64,000 bases of DNA from Candidatus Parcubacteria bacterium (GCA_002869165.1 PKTK01000001.1:446005-510004); one strand, 5' to 3'. Counted from the stretch's first letter, positions 11,009 to 64,000 are shown. Notes: a model not told the origin generated them from the letters alone. Made by a program: numbers and translations.

Positions 11009-12406
11009 ATGAGTAATATGTCTAACCAAATATTAGAAAAATTACCACCCCAGAACCTAGAAGCTGAACAGCATTTTCTAGGCTCTATTTTGCTTGACAA
11101 GGATGCTATCATCAAAGTCGGTGACATGATCAGACCTGATGATTTTTATGACTCAAAACACAGGTTGCTTTATGAAATAATGATTGAATTATATTCAAAA
11201 CATGAACCAATTGATGTTGTTAGTATTAGTAATCTCTTAAAAGAAAAAAACAAGCTTGAACAAGTCGGTGGTAGAACTTATCTTGCCAAACTATCAAATG
11301 TTGCTATTACTCCTACTAGCATAGTTAACTATGCTCATATTATCCAAAAAAAGGCTACTCTGAGACGTCTACTAAAAGCTGCTTCAGAAATAACAGAACT
11401 AGGGCAAAAAGAAGATGAGGAAGTTGATGCACTACTAGACAACGCTTAAAGAAAACTTTTTTCCGTTTCTCATAATTACTTAAAAGAATCCTTTACCCCA
11501 GTTGACACACTTCTAAATGATGCCTTTGAAAGAATTGATGAATTACATAAAATGAGCGGAAAACTCAGGGGTATCCCAACTGGATTCGGTGATTTGGACA
11601 ATCTTCTAACAGGATTACAGAAATCTGACTTGATCATCCTGGCTGCTAGACCATCTGTAGGTAAAACATCGTTTGCCCTAGATATAGCCAGACAAGCAGC
11701 CGTAACACACAAAGCAGCTGTAGGAATATTTTCACTTGAAATGAGTAAGGAACAGCTAGTTGATCGTATGCTTTGCGCTCAATCAAATGTTAGTCTATGG
11801 AAAATGAGATCTGGTAAGCTATCTGACTCTGACGCCAATAATGACTTTGCCAAAATTGCTGAAGGTATGGGACATCTTTCTGAGGCACCTATATACATCG
11901 ACGACTCCCCTAACTGCTCAGTAATGGAGATTCGAACTAAAGCTAGGAGATTAAAGGCTGAAAAAAATCTTGATTTGCTAATAATTGACTACCTCCAACT
12001 CATGGAAGGTCGTGGTAAACATTCTGACAATCGTGTTCAAGAAGTAGCTGAAATTTCTAGTGGTCTCAAGGGTATTGCTCGTGAATTAAATATCCCAGTT
12101 ATTGCCCTCTCACAGCTTTCTCGTGCAGTTGAACAAACCAAACCAGCTATCCCAAAGCTTGCTCATCTTAGAGACTCTGGTTCTATTGAACAAGATGCTG
12201 ATGTAGTTATGTTTATTTATAGAAAATCCGCTGACAGGAACTACAACAAAGAAGAATTATCAGCCGAAGAAAAGAACGCTGGTGAAATCCATGTTGCCAA
12301 ACACAGAAATGGTCCAACCGGAAAAGTAAATCTATTCTTTGATGAAGTAACCGTTAGTTATAAAAACATGGCTAGAGTTGATTACCAAGAGCCACCTCAA
12401 CAATAA
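11009..12406 (+). CDS. dnaB: replicative DNA helicase DnaB, single in-frame TAA at 11447-11449
   Basis: ORFs 11009..11449 and 11552..12406 are in one frame; N-terminal domain (PPQNLEAEQHFLGSILLD), linker, Walker A ARPSVGKTSF, IDYLQLM, SQLSR; total 465 codons, as expected for DnaB. Confidence 0.9.
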
Positions 12407-25650: not shown

Positions 25651-27381
25651 CTAATATCCTTTTTTCTTTTTATAAGTTGTATGCAAGACACTATGTTCGT
25701 AGTGATGCCCCTTGGCCCTTAGCCAGTCTAATACTTTCTTCACTGCCATATTGTCGTGGGCTTTCCTAATCTTCCTGTCTTTATCGTGCTTGTATAATGC
25801 TTCTATTCTCTTTTTTCTTATCTCCCAGCTAGTGGGAATTGGTTGTCCACCTCCTCCAATACATCCACCCGGACAACTCATTACTTCAATATAATGATAA
25901 TCATCCAGTTTTTCTAAAACTTTTTTAATATTTCCAATACCGTTTACCACTGCAACATTATATTTATTGCCAGCTATTTATACTTCAGCTTCCTTTAAGC
26001 CATCTATGCCTCTTACGTCTTCAAATTCAAGCCTAGAGTCACAAAGTGAATCATCACTTCCCTGACAAGCCAAATATTGAGCAGTTCGCAAAGCTGATTC
26101 CATTACTCCTCCGCTAGCCCCATAAATTGCAGCTGCGCCACTATATTCGCCAAGAGGATTATCAGCTTGACTTGGATTAATCTTAGCTAGGTTAATCTCA
26201 TTTTTTTTAAGTAAAAAAGCTAGTTCCCTATTGGTCAAAACATAATCAACTGGCAAACTACCTTTAACCTTCATCTCTCCTCTACTCGCCTCATATTTTT
26301 TAGCTGTACAGGGCATCACTGACACTATCTCAATATCTTTGGGTTTTATGCCCATATTTTGCGCCCAATAAGTCTTGATAATACCCCCCATATGCATATT
26401 TGGAGAACGTGAAGTGGTAATATTCGGAATTAAATCGGGACGATATATTTCTACGTAATTCACCCAGGCAGGACAGCAAGAAGTCATCATAGGTAAGGGC
26501 TTTTTTTCGACAATACGTTCGATTAACTCGCCTGCTTCAACCATGGTGGTAACATCTGCTGCAAAATTAACATCAAATACATAGTCGAAACCGAGCTGTC
26601 TAAGAGATGAAACTATTCTATCTGTTGTTTCTTCACCAGGTTCCAAACCGAATTCTTCACCAATACTTACTCTGATCGAAGGGGCAAAAATGGCAACTTT
26701 TGTTTTTTTCTTTTTACTGATAAGTTTTTCAACATCAGCACAATTAAACTGCTCCTGTGCTGCGCTAACTGGACAATGAACAGCACACTGACCACACAAT
26801 ATACACTGAACTTTTGAATCCTTAACTGGTCTAACTTCTTGATTTTCTCCCTTGCCAGCTATTTCTAGATAGTTTATCCCTTGCATCGCACAAGCATCAA
26901 TGCAATTCCGACAATCAATACACTGTGTAGCATCAAGCTCAACAGCATTTGCAAATTTATATACCTTTCTGTCTCCTTTTCTATCTTCAAATCTATTTAT
27001 ATTTAAATTATATTCCTTAGCGTATTTAAGTAACGGGCAGTTAAAGCGCCATAAACAATCAGGGCACTTCTCAACATGGTCAGCGTAAATTAGTTCTAAA
27101 TTGGTTTTACGAGATTTTTGCACTCTATCGGTGTTTGTTTCGATTTCCATACCTTCCTCAACTTTTGTAGAACATGATGTTTGTAAATTTTTTCTATTTT
27201 TAACTTCTACCACACAAACCCGACAGTTTGCATGTGGTGGAAAATCATCATGCTGACAAAGAGTAGGGATGTCTATTCCTTTTTCTCTAGCAACCTGAAG
27301 AATAGTCATTCCTTCATCACAAGAGACTTGTTGGCCATTCAATTTAATTTTTATTTTCTTCCTTGGCATCTTTGCTGTCAT
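25651..27381 (-). CDS. hydA: [FeFe]-hydrogenase HydA (2Fe-2S + 4Fe-4S + H-cluster domains), single in-frame TAA at 25978-25980
   Basis: ORFs 25978..27381 and 25651..25950 are in one frame; TSCCPAW, MPCTAKKYE upstream and CPGGCIGGGGQP downstream of the TAA; total ~576 codons, as for clostridial HydA; real start may be MPRKK (27369). Confidence 0.9.
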
Positions 27382-31722: not shown

Positions 31723-32523
31723 TTAAAGTGAGAATCTTACAAACTTTTCAATTTTAGCATCTCCGAGAACATCTTCAATTTTTTTCTTATCATCTTTGAT
31801 AAATTCTTGCTTTAGAAGACATACTTCAGAATAATATTTTTCAATTTTTCCTTTCAAAATATTTTCAATAATATTTTCTGGCTTACCTTCTTTTAGAAGT
31901 TGCTCTTTATATATTTCTTTTTCCTTGTCTGTTTCATCAGCTGGAACTTCACTAGGATCAATATATTTAGGACTTGAGGCAGCAATATGCATGGCAATGT
32001 CTTTAGCTAGTTCATTATCGATCTTTTTGTCAAATGATACTAAAACACCAATTTTACCACCCATATGAGAATAAGCAGCTACTGAACCATTTTCTGATTT
32101 TAGCATTTCTATCCCTTTAACGCCCATTTTTTCGCCAATTGTTCCACTTAGATTATCTAGGGTTTCTTGAGCTGTTCCTTCTGACATGGGTTCTGCCATT
32201 AACTCTTCAAGTGAAGCTGGTTTTTTACTTTTTAGAATTTAAAATAACTCTTTGGCATAAGCTTGAAATTTATCGTTTTTTACAACAAAATCAGTTTCAG
32301 CGTTTATTTCAAAAGCATAACCTTCGGTATTATCTTCATTTGTTTCAACTAACACAATACCTTCATTGGTTTCTCTTTCACCTCTTTTAGCTGCTTTTGC
32401 AATTCCTTTTTTACGTAGGATCTCTACTGCCTTTTCAATATCTCCGCCAGTCTCATCAAGAGCTTTTTTACATTCAACCATGCCTGCTCCTGTTTTTTCA
32501 CGAAGTAATTTAATTTTTTCCAT
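31723..32523 (-). CDS. tsf: elongation factor Ts, single in-frame TAA at 32239-32241
   Basis: ORFs 32239..32523 and 31723..32199 are in one frame; UBA-like N-terminus [24 protein letters not shown], then ...KPASLEEL...IGEK... and C-terminal module; downstream of rpsB. Confidence 0.9.
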
Positions 32524-34246: not shown

Positions 34247-34663
34247 TCAGTCCAATTTACAACAAAGCAATGTTGCCTGAATGCCACAATCAGCATCATC
34301 CAGTCTAAAAAAAACAGTTCTTTCGTCTTGTATCTCATCACCAAAATAATGTTTCATTTCACAATTAGCACTCTCAGGAACCCTTCTCATAGAATGACTA
34401 ACAACAACTTCATCAGCAGCACAAGAAAGAGTCAAAGTTTCTGCATATTCTAAGCCTTCAACAATATGACAATCACTAGAGATTCCTCCAAAATCATCAT
34501 CTAGATTATTCCACATTTCTTCTGTCAATAAGTCCCCCTCTGCTTTTTCGTAACTATTTAGATATGCCAAAACATAAGACCCAAAAGGCAAAAGAACGGC
34601 AACGGAAACAATCAAAACAAATATGATTACAAATGATGTAGTTAGAAATTTTAAATTTTTCAT
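34247..34663 (-). CDS. Cys-rich small membrane-anchored/secreted protein, paralog 2
   Basis: Same architecture: N-terminal hydrophobic helix, six conserved Cys, C-terminal CGIQATLLCC. Confidence 0.7.
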   Translation of the reverse strand: MKNLKFLTTSFVIIFVLIVSVAVLLPFGSYVLAYLNSYEKAEGDLLTEEMWNNLDDDFGGISSDCHIVEGLEYAETLTLSCAADEVVVSHSMRRVPESANCEMKHYFGDEIQDERTVFFRLDDADCGIQATLLCCKLD

Positions 34664-34675
34664 ATTTTTTATATT

Positions 34676-35089
34676 TTAAATATCACAACAAATTAACTTT
34701 GCACGAATTCCACAATTTACATCCTCTATGCTAAACCAAACTGTTCTTTCATCTCGTACACTATCTCCAACATATGCTCTTATATCACAGCCAGAATCAT
34801 TTCTCCTTATCATTGAGTGGTTAATAACCGTCTCATCTGCATCACAAGAAAGAGTCATTTCTTGCGCATATGTTTCACCTGAAACCACACGACAATCGCC
34901 ACTAATTTTACCAAAGTCATCATCAAGGTTATTCCACATCTCTACAGATAATAAATCTCCAGACGACTTTTCGTAGCTATTTAAATAAGCCATAACATAA
35001 GATCCAAAAGGCGACAAAACAGCAACGGAAACGACAAAAACAAACACAGTAACAAACGAAATAGCTAATGTTGATTTATAGTTTTTCAT
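34676..35089 (-). CDS. Cys-rich small membrane-anchored/secreted protein, paralog 1
   Basis: Same architecture; C-terminal CGIRAKLICCDI. Confidence 0.7.
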   Translation of the reverse strand: MKNYKSTLAISFVTVFVFVVSVAVLSPFGSYVMAYLNSYEKSSGDLLSVEMWNNLDDDFGKISGDCRVVSGETYAQEMTLSCDADETVINHSMIRRNDSGCDIRAYVGDSVRDERTVWFSIEDVNCGIRAKLICCDI

Positions 35090-39874: not shown

Positions 39875-41392
39875 TTACAATAAATAAATCACATCAAACC
39901 CACTTTCCAAATAATGAAAATTTACAAATAACAAACCGGCTATCAAGATGATCACTGTCAGAGTTTGGACTATGACTGGTTTGTGTTGGACTTCATACCT
40001 AACAATTATTTTGATAGTCAAAGATGCTATCAAAATACAAAGGATAATTGCTAATATGATTTGGGATAAATGTACGGCTTCTGATGAGAATATAAAATTA
40101 CTTTTATCGCTGTATTCAGTGGCAATGCTAGCAATTGGTAGACTCTTTTCATCTGCTTCAACATTCACAGCTTTTTCTCTGGGGTCACTTAACAGAGCTA
40201 TGTCATTACTATGTCTGAATACTTTTATTAATTCAACTGGAATTTCTTCAGAGTTATCCATTGTAGCGGAGACATCTTGATCTTTGTTTATGTTAAGAGG
40301 GGTGGAATCTTCCTTGCTTGACTGGACAATCGGTTCACTAGACGCTTTTACTTCTTCTTCTGGCTCTTGAGTAGCTATATCTGATTCTATTCCTAGTACC
40401 TCACTCTCTTCATCTTGTTTACTCTCAAGAAAAGCGCCTTTGGGAAGTTCTAATGCCTGAATATTATAATCGTCTTCTTGAATAGTCTCTGGCTCTTTAG
40501 TATCAGCCTCAACTTTAGCTATTTCAATTTTTTCACCAATTGGATGTTTGATCTCTTCGACTTTTTCAACTATTTCCTCCTCTACCTGGGTGGCTTCAAC
40601 CAAGTTCTGGCTCTCGTGACCCAAGTCTCGTTCGGAAAATAACTCAACCAACACATTCGTTTCCTTGCCATCAATCTCTCCACGAATTAATGCTAATCCG
40701 ATTTCATTGTATTGTTTATTCAAAATATTCTTTCTGTGACTCACTGAATTCATTAGCGCTGAATGAACTGCTTCGGCGGTATTAAAACTCATGGCCAGGT
40801 TCTCTCCTACAATCTTGTAAGCATACTGGCTTCTATCTATAAAATCCCAAGGTTTTAAACCTTCGGGGGTGGTGTGAGAAAAATAATTTTTCAAAACCAT
40901 ATCATTGGCCTTGTTCAAAGCATAGCCACTGAGAAGAGCATTCTTCTCTAGTGGAGGAACTGAATTTTCAATTCTTGATTGATTGGTAAGCTCCAGGATC
41001 CTGGCTATAAGTAGATCATCCGCTTTACTTTTACTAGGAAAAATAAAATACAAATATGACACAACTGATATTTTTACCAATATAGAAAGCAAAACAAATA
41101 TTGCCAATGATTTGGTTTTTAAAATACGTGGCAAATGATTATTACAATCACAAGGAACAAAATATTCTTTCAAAATAGAACAAGAATGATTACAAAAATC
41201 ATAAAAGCCTTCTCTATCTTTTTCATATTTTTTTATTTCCTTTTCTTCTTTGCCTAAAAATTCTTTGAAATTCTTTTCAATATGTCCTAATCGTTTATTA
41301 AAAAACCCCAATTTCTTCAAAAACAAAAAAGAACTGATGCCAAAAAACACCCAGAACTTTATTCCATGTTTTTTATTCTTTTTATCTTTCAT
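39875..41392 (-). CDS. membrane protein with extracellular CAP/SCP (YkwD-like) domain
   Basis: SCP block NYFSHTTPEG...ENLAMSF...AVHSALMNSVSHRKNIL...YNEIGLAL; acidic linker; C-terminal TM helices; likelier start MKDKKNKK (41392). Confidence 0.7.
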   Translation of the reverse strand: MKDKKNKKHGIKFWVFFGISSFLFLKKLGFFNKRLGHIEKNFKEFLGKEEKEIKKYEKDREGFYDFCNHSCSILKEYFVPCDCNNHLPRILKTKSLAIFVLLSILVKISVVSYLYFIFPSKSKADDLLIARILELTNQSRIENSVPPLEKNALLSGYALNKANDMVLKNYFSHTTPEGLKPWDFIDRSQYAYKIVGENLAMSFNTAEAVHSALMNSVSHRKNILNKQYNEIGLALIRGEIDGKETNVLVELFSERDLGHESQNLVEATQVEEEIVEKVEEIKHPIGEKIEIAKVEADTKEPETIQEDDYNIQALELPKGAFLESKQDEESEVLGIESDIATQEPEEEVKASSEPIVQSSKEDSTPLNINKDQDVSATMDNSEEIPVELIKVFRHSNDIALLSDPREKAVNVEADEKSLPIASIATEYSDKSNFIFSSEAVHLSQIILAIILCILIASLTIKIIVRYEVQHKPVIVQTLTVIILIAGLLFVNFHYLESGFDVIYLL

Positions 41393-41588: not shown

Positions 41589-42260
41589 TTAATTCTCGAT
41601 TGGTTCTGCTATAACAACCAAACGATTTTCAGTTGAATAAATTGGAGTACAGGTAAACATGGTTAATCTAGGCTCGACAGTCTGGTCCATGATGCTTATT
41701 TCTGTTTCAGGAACCACCTTGGTTTCGATTATATGGTAATTTATCTCTTCTTTATTCCATAAAACAGTAACTAAGTCCCCTTTCTCTAGTTTATCAAAAG
41801 AATAAAAAGTCACATTATGGGGCGGTAGATATTTAAACCTGTGGCCTGTAATAACAGTATTTCCTCCTTGATCAGGCGTAGAAGAATCTGGCACTCGCCA
41901 AGCACCCATGGAAAGTCCTTGTTGTTCATTATCAGACTCCACAATTGGGGCATTTACGCCTATTTTAGGGATTATAAGCCTATTTGGGGATACATCGTAG
42001 TCAATACTAGGCAAAACGCTATTTATGACCCTTTTGTGCGCTTCTAGGCTAGTGGTGGCATTCGAACTCTCATATGGCACAAATTCTACTTTATCCTCAT
42101 ATTTAAACTTATAAACCAACCAGGGATAAAAAGGAAATAAAAGCAAATAAAGCAAGATTAAAACTGCTAAAATCTCTAATCCATAAATAAAATATTTTAA
42201 TATTTTTTGCTTGTTAATATTCATAATTTTATTATAACACAAATAAATAACAGAAAACAT
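41589..42260 (-). CDS. sortase family transpeptidase
   Basis: N-terminal TM, catalytic His (VITGHR), Cys motif LTMFTCTP (TLxTC), Arg (NRLVVIAE); likelier start MNINKQK (42224). Confidence 0.85.
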   Translation of the reverse strand: MFSVIYLCYNKIMNINKQKILKYFIYGLEILAVLILLYLLLFPFYPWLVYKFKYEDKVEFVPYESSNATTSLEAHKRVINSVLPSIDYDVSPNRLIIPKIGVNAPIVESDNEQQGLSMGAWRVPDSSTPDQGGNTVITGHRFKYLPPHNVTFYSFDKLEKGDLVTVLWNKEEINYHIIETKVVPETEISIMDQTVEPRLTMFTCTPIYSTENRLVVIAEPIEN

Positions 42261-46439: not shown

Positions 46440-48539
46440 ATGATATTTTTTGATAAAAAGCACAAAAGAAAAATCTTGTTTAGAATTATTATAATTTTCT
46501 TAATAGTTATGTTTTTTGCACTAAGTGGTAACTTGGCCATTAGTTTAGCTACCACTAAATATGGGGAAATCTACATTGATTATAGTGCTTATTACACTGA
46601 TGACAAAGAAAAAAAACTGGCCCTTACATTTGATGATGGTCCGCATAAAAGAAACACGCTAAAAATCCTCAAAGTCCTAAACGATAACGATATTAAAGCC
46701 ACTTTTTTCTTTCAAGGGCAAAATATTATTAGCAACCATGATGTAGTCAAACAAGTCTATGAAGCTGGCATGGAAATCGGTAATCACAGTTTTACTCATT
46801 CGAAAAATGTTCACAGTTCTCCAACTAGGTTGAAATACGAACTAAACTTAACCAGCGAATTATTGGAAGATATCACAGGAGAGCCAGCTCTTCTGTACCG
46901 ACCACCGTTTCTACTTGATGTTGGTGGAGATCCAATCTACTTTCCCCAAGACAATATTCCTATACTAGACCAAATTCAAGCTGAGGGTTATATTGTAATT
47001 GGCGCTGATATAGACCCTAAAGACTGGGATGTAAAAAGCCCTCAAGAGGTAGTAGATAATATTGATAAGGTAATTGATAATGGCAATATAATACTTCTTC
47101 ATGATGGAGGAAAAGAAGTTAGACACACGGTTTATGCGCTAGACACTATTATAAAAAAATACAAAGATCAAGGCTACACCTTCACAACAGTATCAGATAT
47201 TATTGGTTTAAAAGAAGATAAGACAACTAAAACGACTAACAATTCCCTATTATCTACCATCCAAGCTAAACTAGACTCTATTTATCTTTATCTTCTAACT
47301 ATTTTTAGTTTCCTGTTTATTGATATTATTATAAAAGCCCTGGTGATACTGGCTCTTCTTAGACTTGTTTTTGTTTTAATATTATTTAATATTGATAATC
47401 TCAAAAAATTCAAAAGAGAGAAAAAACCTGACAAATCCCCTCCAAGTGTAGCCGTAGTAATTCCTGCCTATAACGAAGAAGCTAGCATTGCTTCAACTAT
47501 CAAAAGTGTACTAAACAATACCTATAAGGTAGACGAAATAATAGTAATGAACGATGGATCCACTGACAGCACAAAAAAAATAGTAAAAGATTTAGCATTG
47601 AAATACTCGCAAATAAAGTTATTTAATCTTAAAAACGGGGGTAAAGCCAGAGCCCTGAATCACGCCTTCCTAATCTCTCAAAAAGATATTCTGATCTGCA
47701 TGGATGGTGATTCAATCTTTGAAAAGAATGCTATCGGCCATTTGATAAAGAATTTTGATGACCCACTAGTAGCTGCTGTAGCCGGCAAGGTATCAGCTAT
47801 TGTAAAGAAGAATTACATTGGGGGCTTTCAGCAAATCGAATATATTATAGGTCAAAACATTGAAAAAGCCTCTTTTAGTACTGTAAATGCTGTTGGGGTG
47901 GTGCCGGGCCCAATCGGTGCTTGGAAAAGAAGGGTCGTAAATGCGCTTGGTGGATACTCAAAAGACACACTGGTAGAAGACCAGGACTTAACTCTGGCCA
48001 TACTTAGTCAGGGGTTTGAAATTCGTTATGAACCGCGCGCCCTATGCTATACCGAAGCCCCTACCAATATCAAAGATTTTTCCAAACAAAGATTTAGATG
48101 GATATATGGTACTATGCAATGCTTCTGGAAATACAAAAAATTTCTCTTTAATCCAAAGAGAAAAAATCTGGGTATGATGATCATGCCAAATATACTTTTA
48201 TATAACACTTTTGTCCCGTTTTTCTCGCCAATGATTGATCTGTTTGCTATTCTTGCTATCTTTACCGGCCAATTCCATGGTGCTTTACTTGCTTATAATT
48301 TCTTTACTTTATTTGATATTTTGTATGCGGGGTCAGCTTTTCTCATTGGCAATGAAAAGAAAAATTGGCACTTGCTTCTACTCATACCTGCCCAAAGAAT
48401 TTTCTACAGACAAATCCTTTATTATATTGTCATCAAATCTCTTATCAAAGCTATAGAAGGGACCAGTGCTTTTTGGAACAAAGTTGAAAGAAACGGTAAT
48501 CTGGAAAAATTTTACTCTAATAATTTAAAACACGCCTAA
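46440..48539 (+). CDS. fusion protein: NodB-type polysaccharide deacetylase + processive family-2 glycosyltransferase (PgaB/PgaC-like)
   Basis: TFDDGP, NHSFTH, LLHDG (deacetylase); VVIPAYNEE, DGSTD, MDGDS, QRFRW plus C-terminal TMs (GT2 synthase). Confidence 0.8.
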   Translation: MIFFDKKHKRKILFRIIIIFLIVMFFALSGNLAISLATTKYGEIYIDYSAYYTDDKEKKLALTFDDGPHKRNTLKILKVLNDNDIKATFFFQGQNIISNHDVVKQVYEAGMEIGNHSFTHSKNVHSSPTRLKYELNLTSELLEDITGEPALLYRPPFLLDVGGDPIYFPQDNIPILDQIQAEGYIVIGADIDPKDWDVKSPQEVVDNIDKVIDNGNIILLHDGGKEVRHTVYALDTIIKKYKDQGYTFTTVSDIIGLKEDKTTKTTNNSLLSTIQAKLDSIYLYLLTIFSFLFIDIIIKALVILALLRLVFVLILFNIDNLKKFKREKKPDKSPPSVAVVIPAYNEEASIASTIKSVLNNTYKVDEIIVMNDGSTDSTKKIVKDLALKYSQIKLFNLKNGGKARALNHAFLISQKDILICMDGDSIFEKNAIGHLIKNFDDPLVAAVAGKVSAIVKKNYIGGFQQIEYIIGQNIEKASFSTVNAVGVVPGPIGAWKRRVVNALGGYSKDTLVEDQDLTLAILSQGFEIRYEPRALCYTEAPTNIKDFSKQRFRWIYGTMQCFWKYKKFLFNPKRKNLGMMIMPNILLYNTFVPFFSPMIDLFAILAIFTGQFHGALLAYNFFTLFDILYAGSAFLIGNEKKNWHLLLLIPAQRIFYRQILYYIVIKSLIKAIEGTSAFWNKVERNGNLEKFYSNNLKHA

Positions 48540-60501: not shown

Positions 60502-60945
60502 CTACACTCCATAAACACTTCCCTCCGACAACTTCTTTAATATCTCCTCCTTCAAATAATCACTCAATTCCCTATCAAGTTTTGGATAGAGAGTACCTGC
60601 TTCGAGAGCTTCATGTTTAGCCAGGATATCTTTCAAGTCATCAACAGTTTCCTCATCAAGTCTAGCAAAATCAACCAACATTCTTCTAATCTGACTATGC
60701 TCTTCCAAGAGTTTGACAAAGATTTGCTTCATTTCATTACTTCCAATATCTTCTATGTTAAAAATCGCCTGTTCCTCTAGTTTCATGTGCGCAAGTAGAT
60801 CATCCTTAAAGCTCTTGATAAGTTCGAGCATTTCTTTTTTATCTACAACAGATCCATCCAAAATTTTATTAAATTTGGCGAATATCACTTTGTGCTCGTT
60901 GCTCATTAAAAATGTTATTGAATTTTGCATATTTTTAAAATTCAT
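60502..60945 (-). CDS. hemerythrin-like (HHE cation-binding) domain protein
   Basis: Four-helix pattern with H/E ligand motifs (NEHKVIF, LLAHMKLEE, LLEEHSQIRR, LAKHEALE). Confidence 0.65.
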   Translation of the reverse strand: MNFKNMQNSITFLMSNEHKVIFAKFNKILDGSVVDKKEMLELIKSFKDDLLAHMKLEEQAIFNIEDIGSNEMKQIFVKLLEEHSQIRRMLVDFARLDEETVDDLKDILAKHEALEAGTLYPKLDRELSDYLKEEILKKLSEGSVYGV

Positions 60946-62086
60946 CTTTCAAAATATCATTTTGAACTTTTTGCATTAAAGTAGTGTAAAATTCCAAGTT
61001 GTGTAAGCTAGCAAGTCTGGCTCCGAGTGGATCTTTGATCTTTTGCAGATGATGAAGATAACTTTTCGAATGATTTCGCAACAAAGACAAGTTTGAACTT
61101 TCATTTATAGCTGACTCATCACTAAAATATTTTGAATTAGCAATATTTAATGTTTTTTAAAACTTAAGAACTTTCCCTTTGGCACCGACCAACTTTTCTG
61201 AACTAAAATAAAATAACCTGCCATGTCGTCCTTCCCTAGTTGGTATAACACAATCAAAAATATCCCATCCCATTAGAACAGACCTGACAATATCTTCTGG
61301 TGTACCTACCCCCAAAGCAAAACGAAAATTATTCGTAGGGATAGAAATGGCTGTAGCTTGCATCACCTTATCCAAAAAGTTTCCCTCTTCATCAACCGGC
61401 CTAGCTCCATAACCATAACCATCAAAACCTATTTTCTGTAACTCTAAAGAACAAAACTCTCTTTTATCAATATCCTTTGCCCCTTGAATAACAGCTATAA
61501 GTAAAGGGCGATTTTTTTTATTTATTTTTCGTCTTATCAACTCTTCTTCAAAGCTGTGCTTACAATCCTTGGCCCACTCTATGGTTCTATTGATAGCTTG
61601 GTCAAGCTTCTTTTCTGAAGCATCATTGGGATGACAATCATCGAGACAGATTACCATATCAGTTCCCAAATCCATTTGTATCTGAATAGATTTTTTTGGT
61701 GTTAATTCGTGCCACGAACCATCAATCGGTGATTTGAACCTAGCTCGTTCGTTATTAATACTTCCCATTTTCCCTTCACCTCTATGTATCAATGAAAAAA
61801 CCTGAAAGCCGCCTGAATCAGAAATCAAAGGGATATTGGTATTCATGAACTTGTGGACTCCTCCTTGTTTTTTAATTAACTTGGCGCCAGGCTGGAGATA
61901 AAGATGAAAAGTATTTACTACCATTGCGGGTAAGCCTAAATCTTCAATTTCAGACTGTGACAAGCCCTTGAGTACCGCCCGAGTAGCATCAGGCATAAAG
62001 AATGGTGTCTTAAGTATGCCATGGGGAGTTTTAAGCTCTGTCACCCGAGCTTTTGTAATATTTGATTGTTTAATTATGTTTAACAT
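60935..62086 (-). CDS. tgt: tRNA-guanine transglycosylase (Tgt) homologue, single in-frame TAA at 61157-61159
   Basis: Track ORF 61157..62086 (DSGGFQVFSL, LGVGTPEDIV, FDCVIPTREGRHG) continues in frame after the TAA for 73 codons: ...NSKYFSDE...SYLHHLQKIKDPLGARLASLHNLEFY...; total 383 codons, as for Tgt. Confidence 0.85.
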
Positions 62087-62098
62087 GTAATAATTCCC

Positions 62099-62168
62099 AT
62101 ACTACAAATGGTATCCGAATAATACAAATATATAATTATTCGTAGTATTCGGATACCATTTGTAGTAT
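62099..62168. other. 23-bp perfect inverted repeat with 24-nt loop
   Basis: atactacaaatggtatccgaata ... tattcggataccatttgtagtat, between the 593-aa gene stop and the tgt start; related words at 56291-56336. Confidence 0.8.
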
Positions 62169-62183
62169 TTGGATTATACTATT

Positions 62184-64000
62184 TTATTCTACCAAGCCAT
62201 GACTACCACCGATCTCATCATCCTCTAGTTTGGTAGTCTTAGCTTTACTGGATATTTTTAACTCAGTTTCAGTTACAGCGTCAACTGCTTGTACGTTTGA
62301 ACCTGGCAAGACAACCATTATTTTATTCTCGTCATCTTCGCTTGGCGTAACTGAAACACTAAAATAAGCACTGGCTTCATACACCGAAACTGGCAAACGC
62401 CCAATATTCCAGACTAACTCATGACCTTCTTCAGAATAGATCAAGGAACCAATGGTTGCGTTTGATTTATCTTCATATTTAATGTAGTCAGGTAATTTCA
62501 AACTAACGGCCAACTTATTCAATTCATGTAGATTGTTTTCAATATCCCAATAAACTTTATATGTGGTAGTTTTGTCAACTTGTGGAGGATTTGGCCCAGA
62601 ACCGACTGGAATATTATCTTCATTAAAGTACCTCAAACTTTCCGTAAAACTAAGATCACTATTTATCTGTAGTTTGATAGCATTACTTTTATTATCCTGC
62701 TCGTCGCTAGAAATATCTTCGCCCCCAAAACTAACTTGGGCATATGTTTCTATACCATAATCTTTTTCCAAATCTACCGCTCCAAAATCAGCAACATTGA
62801 TAGAAAAATCAATCACTCCCTCTTGATCACGAGACACAAGCGCCAAAGCTGGAATTTCCTCTTTGCTCCAAGTGATAGTATTGCCTCGTTCTCTGCCTTG
62901 ATTTAAATCCTGTAAAGTTGTCCAATCTAGAAAATCTCCATCCAAAACGGCCATAACCACTACATCATTTACATCAGAATCACCTTTATTATTATAGACT
63001 ATAGAAAAATTCAAAAGCTCACCAAAATCAACCCCTTTAGACTCTCGTTCACCATTGACTATCATTGTTAAATTCAAATCACTTTTCATGATATTTAATT
63101 CAATCTCCTCTCTGTAAAATTCATAATATTCCTCATCTATATTATCCTTTTTTTCGAACTTAAAAATAAGTTTTTGCTTGTCTTCATTTTTTTCTACAAC
63201 CTTAAATTGAATAGGCAAAACCTGCTCCTCATCTAAAACTCCGTTCACCTCCCATATACCAGCCCTATCAATGGTATAACTTGCATAATTCTGCTCGCTA
63301 TCATTTATATCATCAGGAATATATGAAAAAATTTCGATGTTCTCTTGTGGCTCCACACTAATCCGAAAATCCTTGATATATGATTTTTCATTAGCTGAAA
63401 AATGAATAGACATATCTTCTATTTCTCCGACCAAAGCGGTTTCTAAAAAATCAAAATCTATATCTAATCCCGTATCAATTATCATAGTAGTAACAAAAGC
63501 CTCCTTTTTATATTCTGAGCTTAATCCTTCTGGTGAGTATGTTAAATATGCCGAAATAACCCCATTTGCATCTTTTGCTCCTAGCATTTGCCCCTTGAGT
63601 ACAATATCCCCCCTAGTAAATGGCTCTACCCTGCCTACTTCCCAAGAATTATTCTGAAAATCATCATCAGATTCAAGGAGAATATAATTATTTGGTAATG
63701 TTACATTTACTCTAACATTTTCCAAGGTCACTCGACTTTCATTTACATAAACCAACTTATACTCGAATTCCTCGCCAGCCACAACTTCTTTGTCTCCTTC
63801 AATTTTAATACTGATTTTACTAGCATCAAACGAAGCATTCTTGTACCAATTATCATACAACCAGTAACCACCTCCGCCCAAAGCCATAATTACAAACAAA
63901 AAATTAACAATAGACAGAATAATGCTATGTTTCTTTATTTTTTCTAATTTGTGCACATCAACCAAATGACCCTCGTCATCTTGATAAATCTCGGTTAAAC
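62184..64000 (-). CDS. large membrane-anchored surface protein, N-terminus probably outside the window
   Basis: The frame stays open upstream of the track TTG start to position 64000 (...LTEIYQDDEGHLVDVHK); TM helix then repeated beta-sandwich-like segments (YKLVYVNESRVTLENVRVNVTLP, NFSIVYNNKGDSDVNDVVVMAVL). Confidence 0.6.
   Translation of the reverse strand, partial: LTEIYQDDEGHLVDVHKLEKIKKHSIILSIVNFLFVIMALGGGGYWLYDNWYKNASFDASKISIKIEGDKEVVAGEEFEYKLVYVNESRVTLENVRVNVTLPNNYILLESDDDFQNNSWEVGRVEPFTRGDIVLKGQMLGAKDANGVISAYLTYSPEGLSSEYKKEAFVTTMIIDTGLDIDFDFLETALVGEIEDMSIHFSANEKSYIKDFRISVEPQENIEIFSYIPDDINDSEQNYASYTIDRAGIWEVNGVLDEEQVLPIQFKVVEKNEDKQKLIFKFEKKDNIDEEYYEFYREEIELNIMKSDLNLTMIVNGERESKGVDFGELLNFSIVYNNKGDSDVNDVVVMAVLDGDFLDWTTLQDLNQGRERGNTITWSKEEIPALALVSRDQEGVIDFSINVADFGAVDLEKDYGIETYAQVSFGGEDISSDEQDNKSNAIKLQINSDLSFTESLRYFNEDNIPVGSGPNPPQVDKTTTYKVYWDIENNLHELNKLAVSLKLPDYIKYEDKSNATIGSLIYSEEGHELVWNIGRLPVSVYEASAYFSVSVTPSEDDENKIMVVLPGSNVQAVDAVTETELKISSKAKTTKLEDDEIGGSHGLVE

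Follow-up and report, generated by a model that had tools for sequence, protein, structure and literature searches.

The tgt gene of a Candidatus Parcubacteria bacterium, which encodes a tRNA-guanine(34) transglycosylase (Tgt), lies on the minus strand of a 64,000-nucleotide stretch of contig PKTK01000001.1 (the window; all positions are counted from its first letter). As deposited, the gene is interrupted by a single in-frame TAA, and its C-terminal region lacks the cysteines of the canonical zinc site. It is very probable that these two peculiarities have independent causes that are superimposed at one locus: the stop codon would be an artefact of the deposited assembly, whilst the missing zinc site would be a conserved character of a whole clade of Tgt enzymes from the candidate phyla radiation (CPR).

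Translation of the minus strand from 62086 to 60935 gives 309 codons, which a TAA at 61157-61159 divides from 73 more before the natural TAA; no frameshift occurs anywhere along the frame. The Pfam TGT profile PF01702 runs straight across the stop (residues 12-383, E = 1e-100, 337.8 bits against a cutoff of 26.3), and the NCBIfam equivalog TIGR00430 gives the read-through product 332.5 bits against a cutoff of 306.75. A preliminary description of this DNA had reported a tgt gene split solely by this TAA, and was accurate in this respect. The read-through product carries the motifs DSGGFQ, LGVGTPED, FDCVIPTR, SYLHHL and LGARLASLHNLEFY, and its identity to solved Tgt enzymes is about 32-33%. By profile, catalytic residues and fold, the window protein is to all appearances a Tgt, although neither the textbook zinc site nor the textbook pocket motif is present in it.

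The gene is not interrupted elsewhere. A public protein search returned a protein of 383 residues (P0001) that is 99% identical to the window Tgt, has Tyr at the position of the stop, and is encoded intact in four assemblies: JGI 3300007102, ENA ERZ794999 (NODE_4, a 500,921-bp contig at 23x), ENA ERZ794998 and Logan SRR5894289. All four (L001-L004) have C at the stop-creating position and the codon is TAC in 4/4; the change that creates the stop is C→A on the coding strand, equivalent to G→T at plus-strand position 61157. The stop is nevertheless present in the deposited record, because the 309-residue fragment is itself deposited as PLX28078.1 at NCBI (P0002, from a contig of 584,723 bp). No match to this fragment was found in the contig index. 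Tyr310 lies within KFYKTINI and is near-invariant, the TAA column being occupied by a sense codon, nearly always for Tyr, in all 21 aligned homologues. Besides the TAA, the sole other difference between the window tgt and P0001 is Pro152His, caused by a second G:C→T:A change (61632) and affecting a Pro that is nearly invariant in homologues. The assemblies thus show the tgt of this organism to be, at the level of sequence, an intact 383-codon gene. Since it is intact in the other assemblies and the TAA is a private G:C→T:A change, the organism on this evidence neither recodes TAA nor has a two-piece Tgt or a tgt pseudogene, and the earlier suggestion that the gene is relaxing finds no support in the four assemblies that encode it whole.

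The interruption of tgt is one of several in the window. A search for long frames with only one stop between them revealed further in-frame TAA codons in dnaB, in a gene resembling the large subunit of FeFe-hydrogenase and in tsf, which encodes EF-Ts (Table 1); the corresponding regions of other assemblies were retrieved by means of small intact proteins of the window. In an alignment covering 58,657 window bases, 42 differences are private to the window; 40 are C>A or G>T, the two outside this class being C>T at 40085 and A>C at 47355. The 23x assembly ERZ794999 has zero private differences in the same comparison. One private change, Met→Ile at 42216, falls within the sortase open reading frame at 41589-42260, and is the reason that a look-up of this frame gave no match.

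The 40 changes comprise 26 missense, 5 synonymous, 4 nonsense and 5 intergenic changes, where random G:C→T:A changes on this sequence are expected to give 26.8, 3.3, 4.2 and 5.7, respectively (chi-square p = 0.80); because the observed effects match the random expectation, the changes carry no imprint of selection. An effect specific to TAA was ruled out, since, of all possible G:C→T:A nonsense changes, 63.5% yield TAA (p = 0.16 for four of four being TAA). Among the first-analysed changes, 30 of 35 are at YpC, that is, at a C after a pyrimidine, against 18.7 expected (p = 6e-5). YpC corresponds to the 5' G of GpR on the opposite strand, and the 5' guanine of GpR is the context most prone to guanine oxidation. 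Both dnaB and tsf are essential in bacteria and nonsense codons in the two genes are incompatible with viability, so that these changes would not have been inherited by a living lineage. The comparison between assemblies shows the window TAAs to be part of an unselected error spectrum that is private to one deposited assembly and, to judge from its substitutions, of the oxidation type. The preliminary description had linked the loss of the zinc site to the set of in-frame TAAs. This link does not hold: the TAAs stand in place of Glu three times and Tyr once, and belong to the 40 private, unselected G:C→T:A changes.

The zinc site has a different history. In a HMMER alignment to the E. coli enzyme (PDB 10fb), with which MAFFT agrees, ECDCYTC of E. 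coli stands opposite SSNLSLL, the three cysteines being replaced by Ser331, Leu333 and Leu336. The absence of all three, as first described, is therefore real, and the E. coli motif given there is correct according to the same alignment. Clade columns were taken from the 120 best homologues, which have 54-69% identity and, where named, come from Parcubacteria/Falkowbacteria-type Patescibacteria. In the three Cys columns these have Ser in 120/120, one of Leu, Ile, Phe, Val or Met, and Leu in 120/120; in the column of the fourth ligand they have Asn (97), His (16), Gln (6) or Ser (1). Because the replacement residues are conserved and Asn is found in 97 of the 120 homologues, the loss is old and the His362 of the window species is not a retained ligand. 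The statement that the His ligand is kept thus applies to the window species, and the residue is not conserved in the clade.

Local decay of the zinc site was ruled out by the conservation of the replacement residues in the 120 homologues. Instead, the alignment shows the loss of the ligands to be ancestral to the Tgt clade of the window enzyme and conserved within it. The proposal of a zinc-less Tgt in this lineage is accordingly upheld, the three Cys being absent in 120/120 closest homologues whilst the catalytic residues are kept. To our knowledge, the zinc site is regarded as invariable in TGT enzymes, be they bacterial, archaeal or eukaryotic. The searched literature yielded no paper that deals with Tgt or queuosine in CPR/Patescibacteria, and nothing relevant on the sample accessions; within that literature, the zinc-less Tgt clades are apparently undescribed.

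The remainder of the enzyme is strongly conserved. The catalytic residues tested were, in Z. mobilis numbering, Asp102, Asp156, Cys158, Gln203 and the nucleophile Asp280. Four of these, namely the Asp residues of DSGG and FDCV and both the Asp and the Cys of xDDC, occur in 120/120 homologues and in the window; Gln201, the equivalent of Gln203, is invariant in aligned homologues. An AlphaFold model of P0001, made with a 60-sequence alignment, has a mean predicted local distance difference test score (pLDDT) of 92.8 and a predicted template modelling (TM) score of 0.91, with residues 300-383 at pLDDT 92-98. Foldseek aligned this model with Z. mobilis TGT structures (1efz, 1q2r and others) at TM 0.86-0.90 and a root-mean-square deviation of ~2.2 A over ~381 columns. 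Retention of the (beta/alpha)8 barrel with its C-terminal subdomain is thereby predicted.

In the known enzymes, a zinc-binding insertion between beta8 and alpha8 organises the interface of the TGT homodimer, to which YLHHL contributes Tyr330 and His333 in Z. mobilis numbering (bioRxiv 10.1101/2020.09.01.277731). The equivalents of these residues in the window Tgt, Tyr343 and His346, are invariant or nearly so in the clade. Directly before the former zinc motif lies a hairpin that contains codon 310 and is, in the alignment to E. coli Tgt, ~15 residues longer than its counterpart; its length is variable among the CPR homologues and its FYxTINI end is conserved. The structural zinc of the beta8-alpha8 subdomain may have been replaced by a small hydrophobic, hydrogen-bonded mini-core of Ser, aliphatic, Leu and Asn residues beside this lengthened hairpin, and the zinc-less enzyme would still act as a dimeric tRNA-guanine transglycosylase.

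The loss is also not confined to the clade of the window. For loci from species representatives of GTDB, motifs were compared and a neighbour-joining tree was built. In a sister clade (Moraniibacteriota and others, 46-55% identity) the site persists, as CDCxLC...His, together with a G[AG]RHxD pocket, so the zinc site would have been lost after the window and Moraniibacteriota-type clades split. Zinc-less enzymes with a canonical GGL[AS]VGE pocket form a separate group within the CPR (Buchananbacteria, Kuenenbacteria and others, 41-44%), and Jacksonbacteria and Minisyncoccia provide examples of further zinc-less Tgt. Tentatively, these distributions suggest at least two or three independent losses of the zinc site in the CPR. 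Among the 150 best 50%-identity representatives from a library of 1.8 billion proteins, 109 have Cys-Cys-Cys-His and ~30 are without at least one ligand.

How the G:C→T:A changes came to be in the assembly can be pictured as follows. C>A/G>T transversions from 8-oxoguanine (8-oxoG) are a documented class of sequencing artefact (Costello et al. 2013, PMC3616734). Guanines would be oxidised and the resulting 8-oxoG would pair with A, giving G:C→T:A changes, which few template molecules or low depth, as in an amplified low-input library, would allow to become fixed in the consensus. The changes probably reached the consensus through a low-input library that had been bottlenecked or amplified, through very low local depth, or because the DNA of the organism carried a heavy lesion load.

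Several points weigh against this combination of an assembly artefact and an old loss of zinc. Published 8-oxoG artefacts are normally at low allele fraction (PMC3616734), whereas here ~0.2% of G:C sites are changed in the consensus of a 585-kb contig. The enrichment extends to TCN and CCN generally, beyond the CCG>CAG context of shearing artefacts. Changes of the same class are present at a lower rate in a second assembly, and may point to unrepaired lesions in vivo rather than to library preparation. On the side of the enzyme, the confidence of the AlphaFold model is no test of metal independence, and the neighbour-joining tree behind the count of independent losses is without support values.

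The second assembly is JGI 3300007102, which has nine private differences, 8/9 of them G:C→T:A, and because of these private changes the damage-type noise must extend beyond a single assembly. One of them, TCA→TAA (L091, equivalent to window position 47194), splits a 699-residue polysaccharide-deacetylase/glycosyltransferase gene, intact in the window (46440-48539, plus strand) and in the ENA assembly, into parts of 398 and 251 residues. As a weaker possibility, the G:C→T:A-type noise in the two assemblies could reflect an unusually high in situ load of unrepaired 8-oxoG in the DNA of this organism, and not an effect of the laboratory alone. At one position, 32743 (Asp/Tyr in rpsB), the window and the JGI assembly share A where ENA ERZ794999 and Logan have C; this is the sole such shared site, and represents either a true polymorphism or else a C>A change common to both assemblies.

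An alternative is that the sequenced strain was a genuine mutator, for instance one without MutY/MutM-type repair, in which tgt is a real and recently inactivated pseudogene. A defect in 8-oxoG repair would yield exactly this spectrum, another assembly of the organism has private G:C→T:A changes as well, and a contig of 585 kb speaks against extremely poor data. However, nonsense changes at the unselected rate (4 against 4.2 expected), in dnaB and tsf amongst others, would leave a genome that could not propagate; moreover, there is no deficit of missense changes and the 23x assembly has zero private changes, which together make a mutator distinctly unlikely. The interruption of four conserved genes in 64 kb by TAA only, with no frameshifts, might also suggest that TAA is decoded as an amino acid or read through and that the interrupted genes are translated in full. 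Against this, other assemblies have GAA three times and TAC once at these sites, so that two amino acids are involved and the TAA is not conserved, and the TAAs make up no more than their proportionate share of a general G:C→T:A spectrum. TAA is also the normal terminator of 37 of the 58 window genes, with a clear and genuine gene end at 34676-34678, and within the window there is no suppressor tRNA with a UUA anticodon, tRNA-Thr(UGU) and tRNA-Lys(UUU) being the only tRNAs there. Recoding is hardly credible on these grounds. The same negligible weight is given to a functional split gene, in which the 309-residue barrel part and the 73-residue C-terminal part would assemble as two polypeptides. 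The break does fall in a surface hairpin between barrel and C-terminal subdomain, but no start codon with a ribosome-binding site follows the TAA (the first candidate, TTG at 61090, is inside the former zinc motif), the stop takes the place of a near-invariant Tyr, and tgt is one continuous gene in all relatives and in all other assemblies. An artefactual TAA in an intact gene remains by far the better account.

The zinc-less enzyme of the clade invites a question of its own, since its substrate pocket is also altered. At the position of the canonical GGLAVGE motif, the 120 homologues have Gly (120), Ala (119), Arg (116), Pro (110) and Asp (119); the residue in the Glu235 column varies. In Z. 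mobilis TGT, the Leu231/Ala232 peptide and Glu235 form a switch that accommodates either guanine or the queuosine precursor preQ1. Pro at 232 and the loss of Glu235 may alter base handling or specificity; because the pocket reads GARPxD and not GGLAVGE, the base specificity of the clade may differ. Related non-canonical pockets, GGRHxD and GGWPxD, are found in clades nearby that contain the zinc site, a Dehalococcoidia genome (L033) among them. Within the 64-kb window and its flanks, no que gene was seen. The clade might be a neo-functionalised, paralogue-like enzyme that acts on another base or nucleic-acid substrate, rather than an orthodox preQ1-inserting Tgt. The replacement of Leu231/Ala232 and Glu235 is in keeping with this, as are a TIGR00430 score barely above the cutoff and the general lack, in CPR genomes, of de novo synthesis of cofactors and bases. 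Yet the equivalents of the catalytic Asp residues, Asp156, Cys158 and Gln203 are invariant, the fold and the dimer-interface motif are kept, the score does exceed the equivalog threshold, and the gene appears as a Tgt homologue in a conserved neighbourhood across CPR clades of either pocket type. Neo-functionalisation of this kind is therefore regarded as improbable. Somewhat less doubtful, though still more speculative than the conserved zinc-less clade itself, is a broader proposal: several Patescibacteria lineages may have evolved a zinc-independent Tgt independently, the window clade with a rebuilt pocket and a specificity for a different 7-deazaguanine or other base. If this were true, host-dependent bacteria would possess a transglycosylase that needs no metal and differs in its base specificity.

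Table 1. Features of the window that bear on tgt and on the in-frame TAA codons
Feature	Position	Strand	Remarks
In-frame TAA in dnaB	11447..11449	plus	GAA (Glu) elsewhere; DnaB intact, 462 aa, in other assemblies
In-frame TAA in FeFe-hydrogenase large-subunit-like gene	25978..25980	minus	GAA (Glu) elsewhere; intact, 576 aa
In-frame TAA in tsf (EF-Ts)	32239..32241	minus	GAA (Glu) elsewhere; intact, 266 aa
tgt coding sequence	60935..62086	minus	383 codons if codon 310 is Tyr; putative tRNA-guanine(34) transglycosylase of a zinc-less CPR clade
tgt codon 152, CAT (His)	61631..61633	minus	CCT (Pro) in other assemblies; second G:C→T:A change in tgt
Substrate-pocket motif GARPVDE	61388..61408	minus	aligned to canonical GGLAVGE
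Lengthened hairpin (FYFSSEKLVGAKGKVLKFYKTLNI)	61142..61213	minus	directly before former zinc motif; contains codon 310
In-frame TAA, tgt codon 310	61157..61159	minus	TAC (Tyr) in all other assemblies of the organism
CxCxxC remnant, Ser331-Asn-Leu333-Ser-Leu-Leu336	61079..61096	minus	from alignment to E. coli Tgt
Fourth zinc-ligand position, His362 (SLHNL)	61001..61003	minus	opposite E. coli TIHNL

The surroundings of tgt have some features of their own. Directly upstream, on the same strand (62184-63965), is a gene for an N-terminally anchored protein of 593 residues with only faint Pfam matches. This gene is directly upstream of tgt in ~20 CPR genomes (L011-L030), zinc-less and zinc-containing alike, and by its recurrence the two genes are a conserved pair, as judged from gene order. 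A perfect 23-bp inverted repeat (ATACTACAAATGGTATCCGAATA), with arms at 62099-62121 and 62146-62168 that are 24 bp apart, takes up most of the 97 bp that separate the upstream gene from the start of tgt. The repeat is unique in the window and is not followed by a T-run; it could be a terminator or a regulatory hairpin. On the downstream side, a hemerythrin-like gene (60502-60945, minus strand; PF01814, 147 residues) starts 11 nt before the tgt stop, and the overlap (ATGAATTTTAA) suggests translational coupling. By tblastn, the hemerythrin-like gene was beside tgt at 0/80 related loci, and a conserved linkage of the two was ruled out. Elsewhere in the window, at 34247-35089 on the minus strand, two tandem paralogous genes encode small Cys-rich proteins with signal peptides (137 and 138 residues), with a genuine TAA and 12 nt between them; in the reference gene calls these are followed by a third copy (141 residues).

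The in-frame TAA set of the window should be struck from lists of recoding candidates or pseudogenes. Comparison with other assemblies, combined with the class of mutation and its blindness to selection, provides a check that is able to catch similar cases elsewhere. The TAA result is thus a useful negative for recoding screens, whilst the zinc-less Tgt offers a natural variant for the structural biology of the family. The TGT dimer interface that is organised by the zinc subdomain is a target of drug-design work. Natural zinc-less clades with an altered preQ1 pocket provide a test of the need for the zinc subdomain and of the use of a different base in CPR bacteria.

Reassignment of stop codons is well known in bacteria and their phages, UGA being read as Gly in Gracilibacteria/Absconditabacteria and UAG or UGA being recoded in phages. 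The likeness of the window to these systems is superficial, and lies in several conserved genes having in-frame stops of one type with no frameshifts. In contrast to reassigned codons, the window stops are not conserved even between assemblies, they replace two amino acids, and TAA is still the main terminator. The resemblance to 8-oxoG artefacts (PMC3616734) is much closer: the changes are near-exclusively C>A/G>T, are absent from independent data, are blind to selection and prefer a guanine before a purine. They differ in being in the assembly consensus rather than at low allele fraction, and in being enriched at YpC in general (TCA, TCT, CCA) and not specifically at CCG. With the bacterial Tgt enzymes of E. 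coli and Z. mobilis (PF01702/TIGR00430), the window Tgt has profile membership, fold, catalytic residues and the YLHHL dimer-interface motif in common. The window clade differs from them in a hairpin before the former zinc motif that is longer by ~5-35 residues, in Ser/aliphatic/Leu/Asn(His) where the CxCxxC...His zinc site stands, and in a GARPxD pocket in place of GGLAVGE. Nearest to the window clade amongst outside enzymes is the zinc-containing Tgt of the Moraniibacteriota type (L018, L020-L026), which has the long hairpin, a G[AG]RH[VI]D pocket and the same upstream neighbour gene, and differs by keeping CDCxLC...His.

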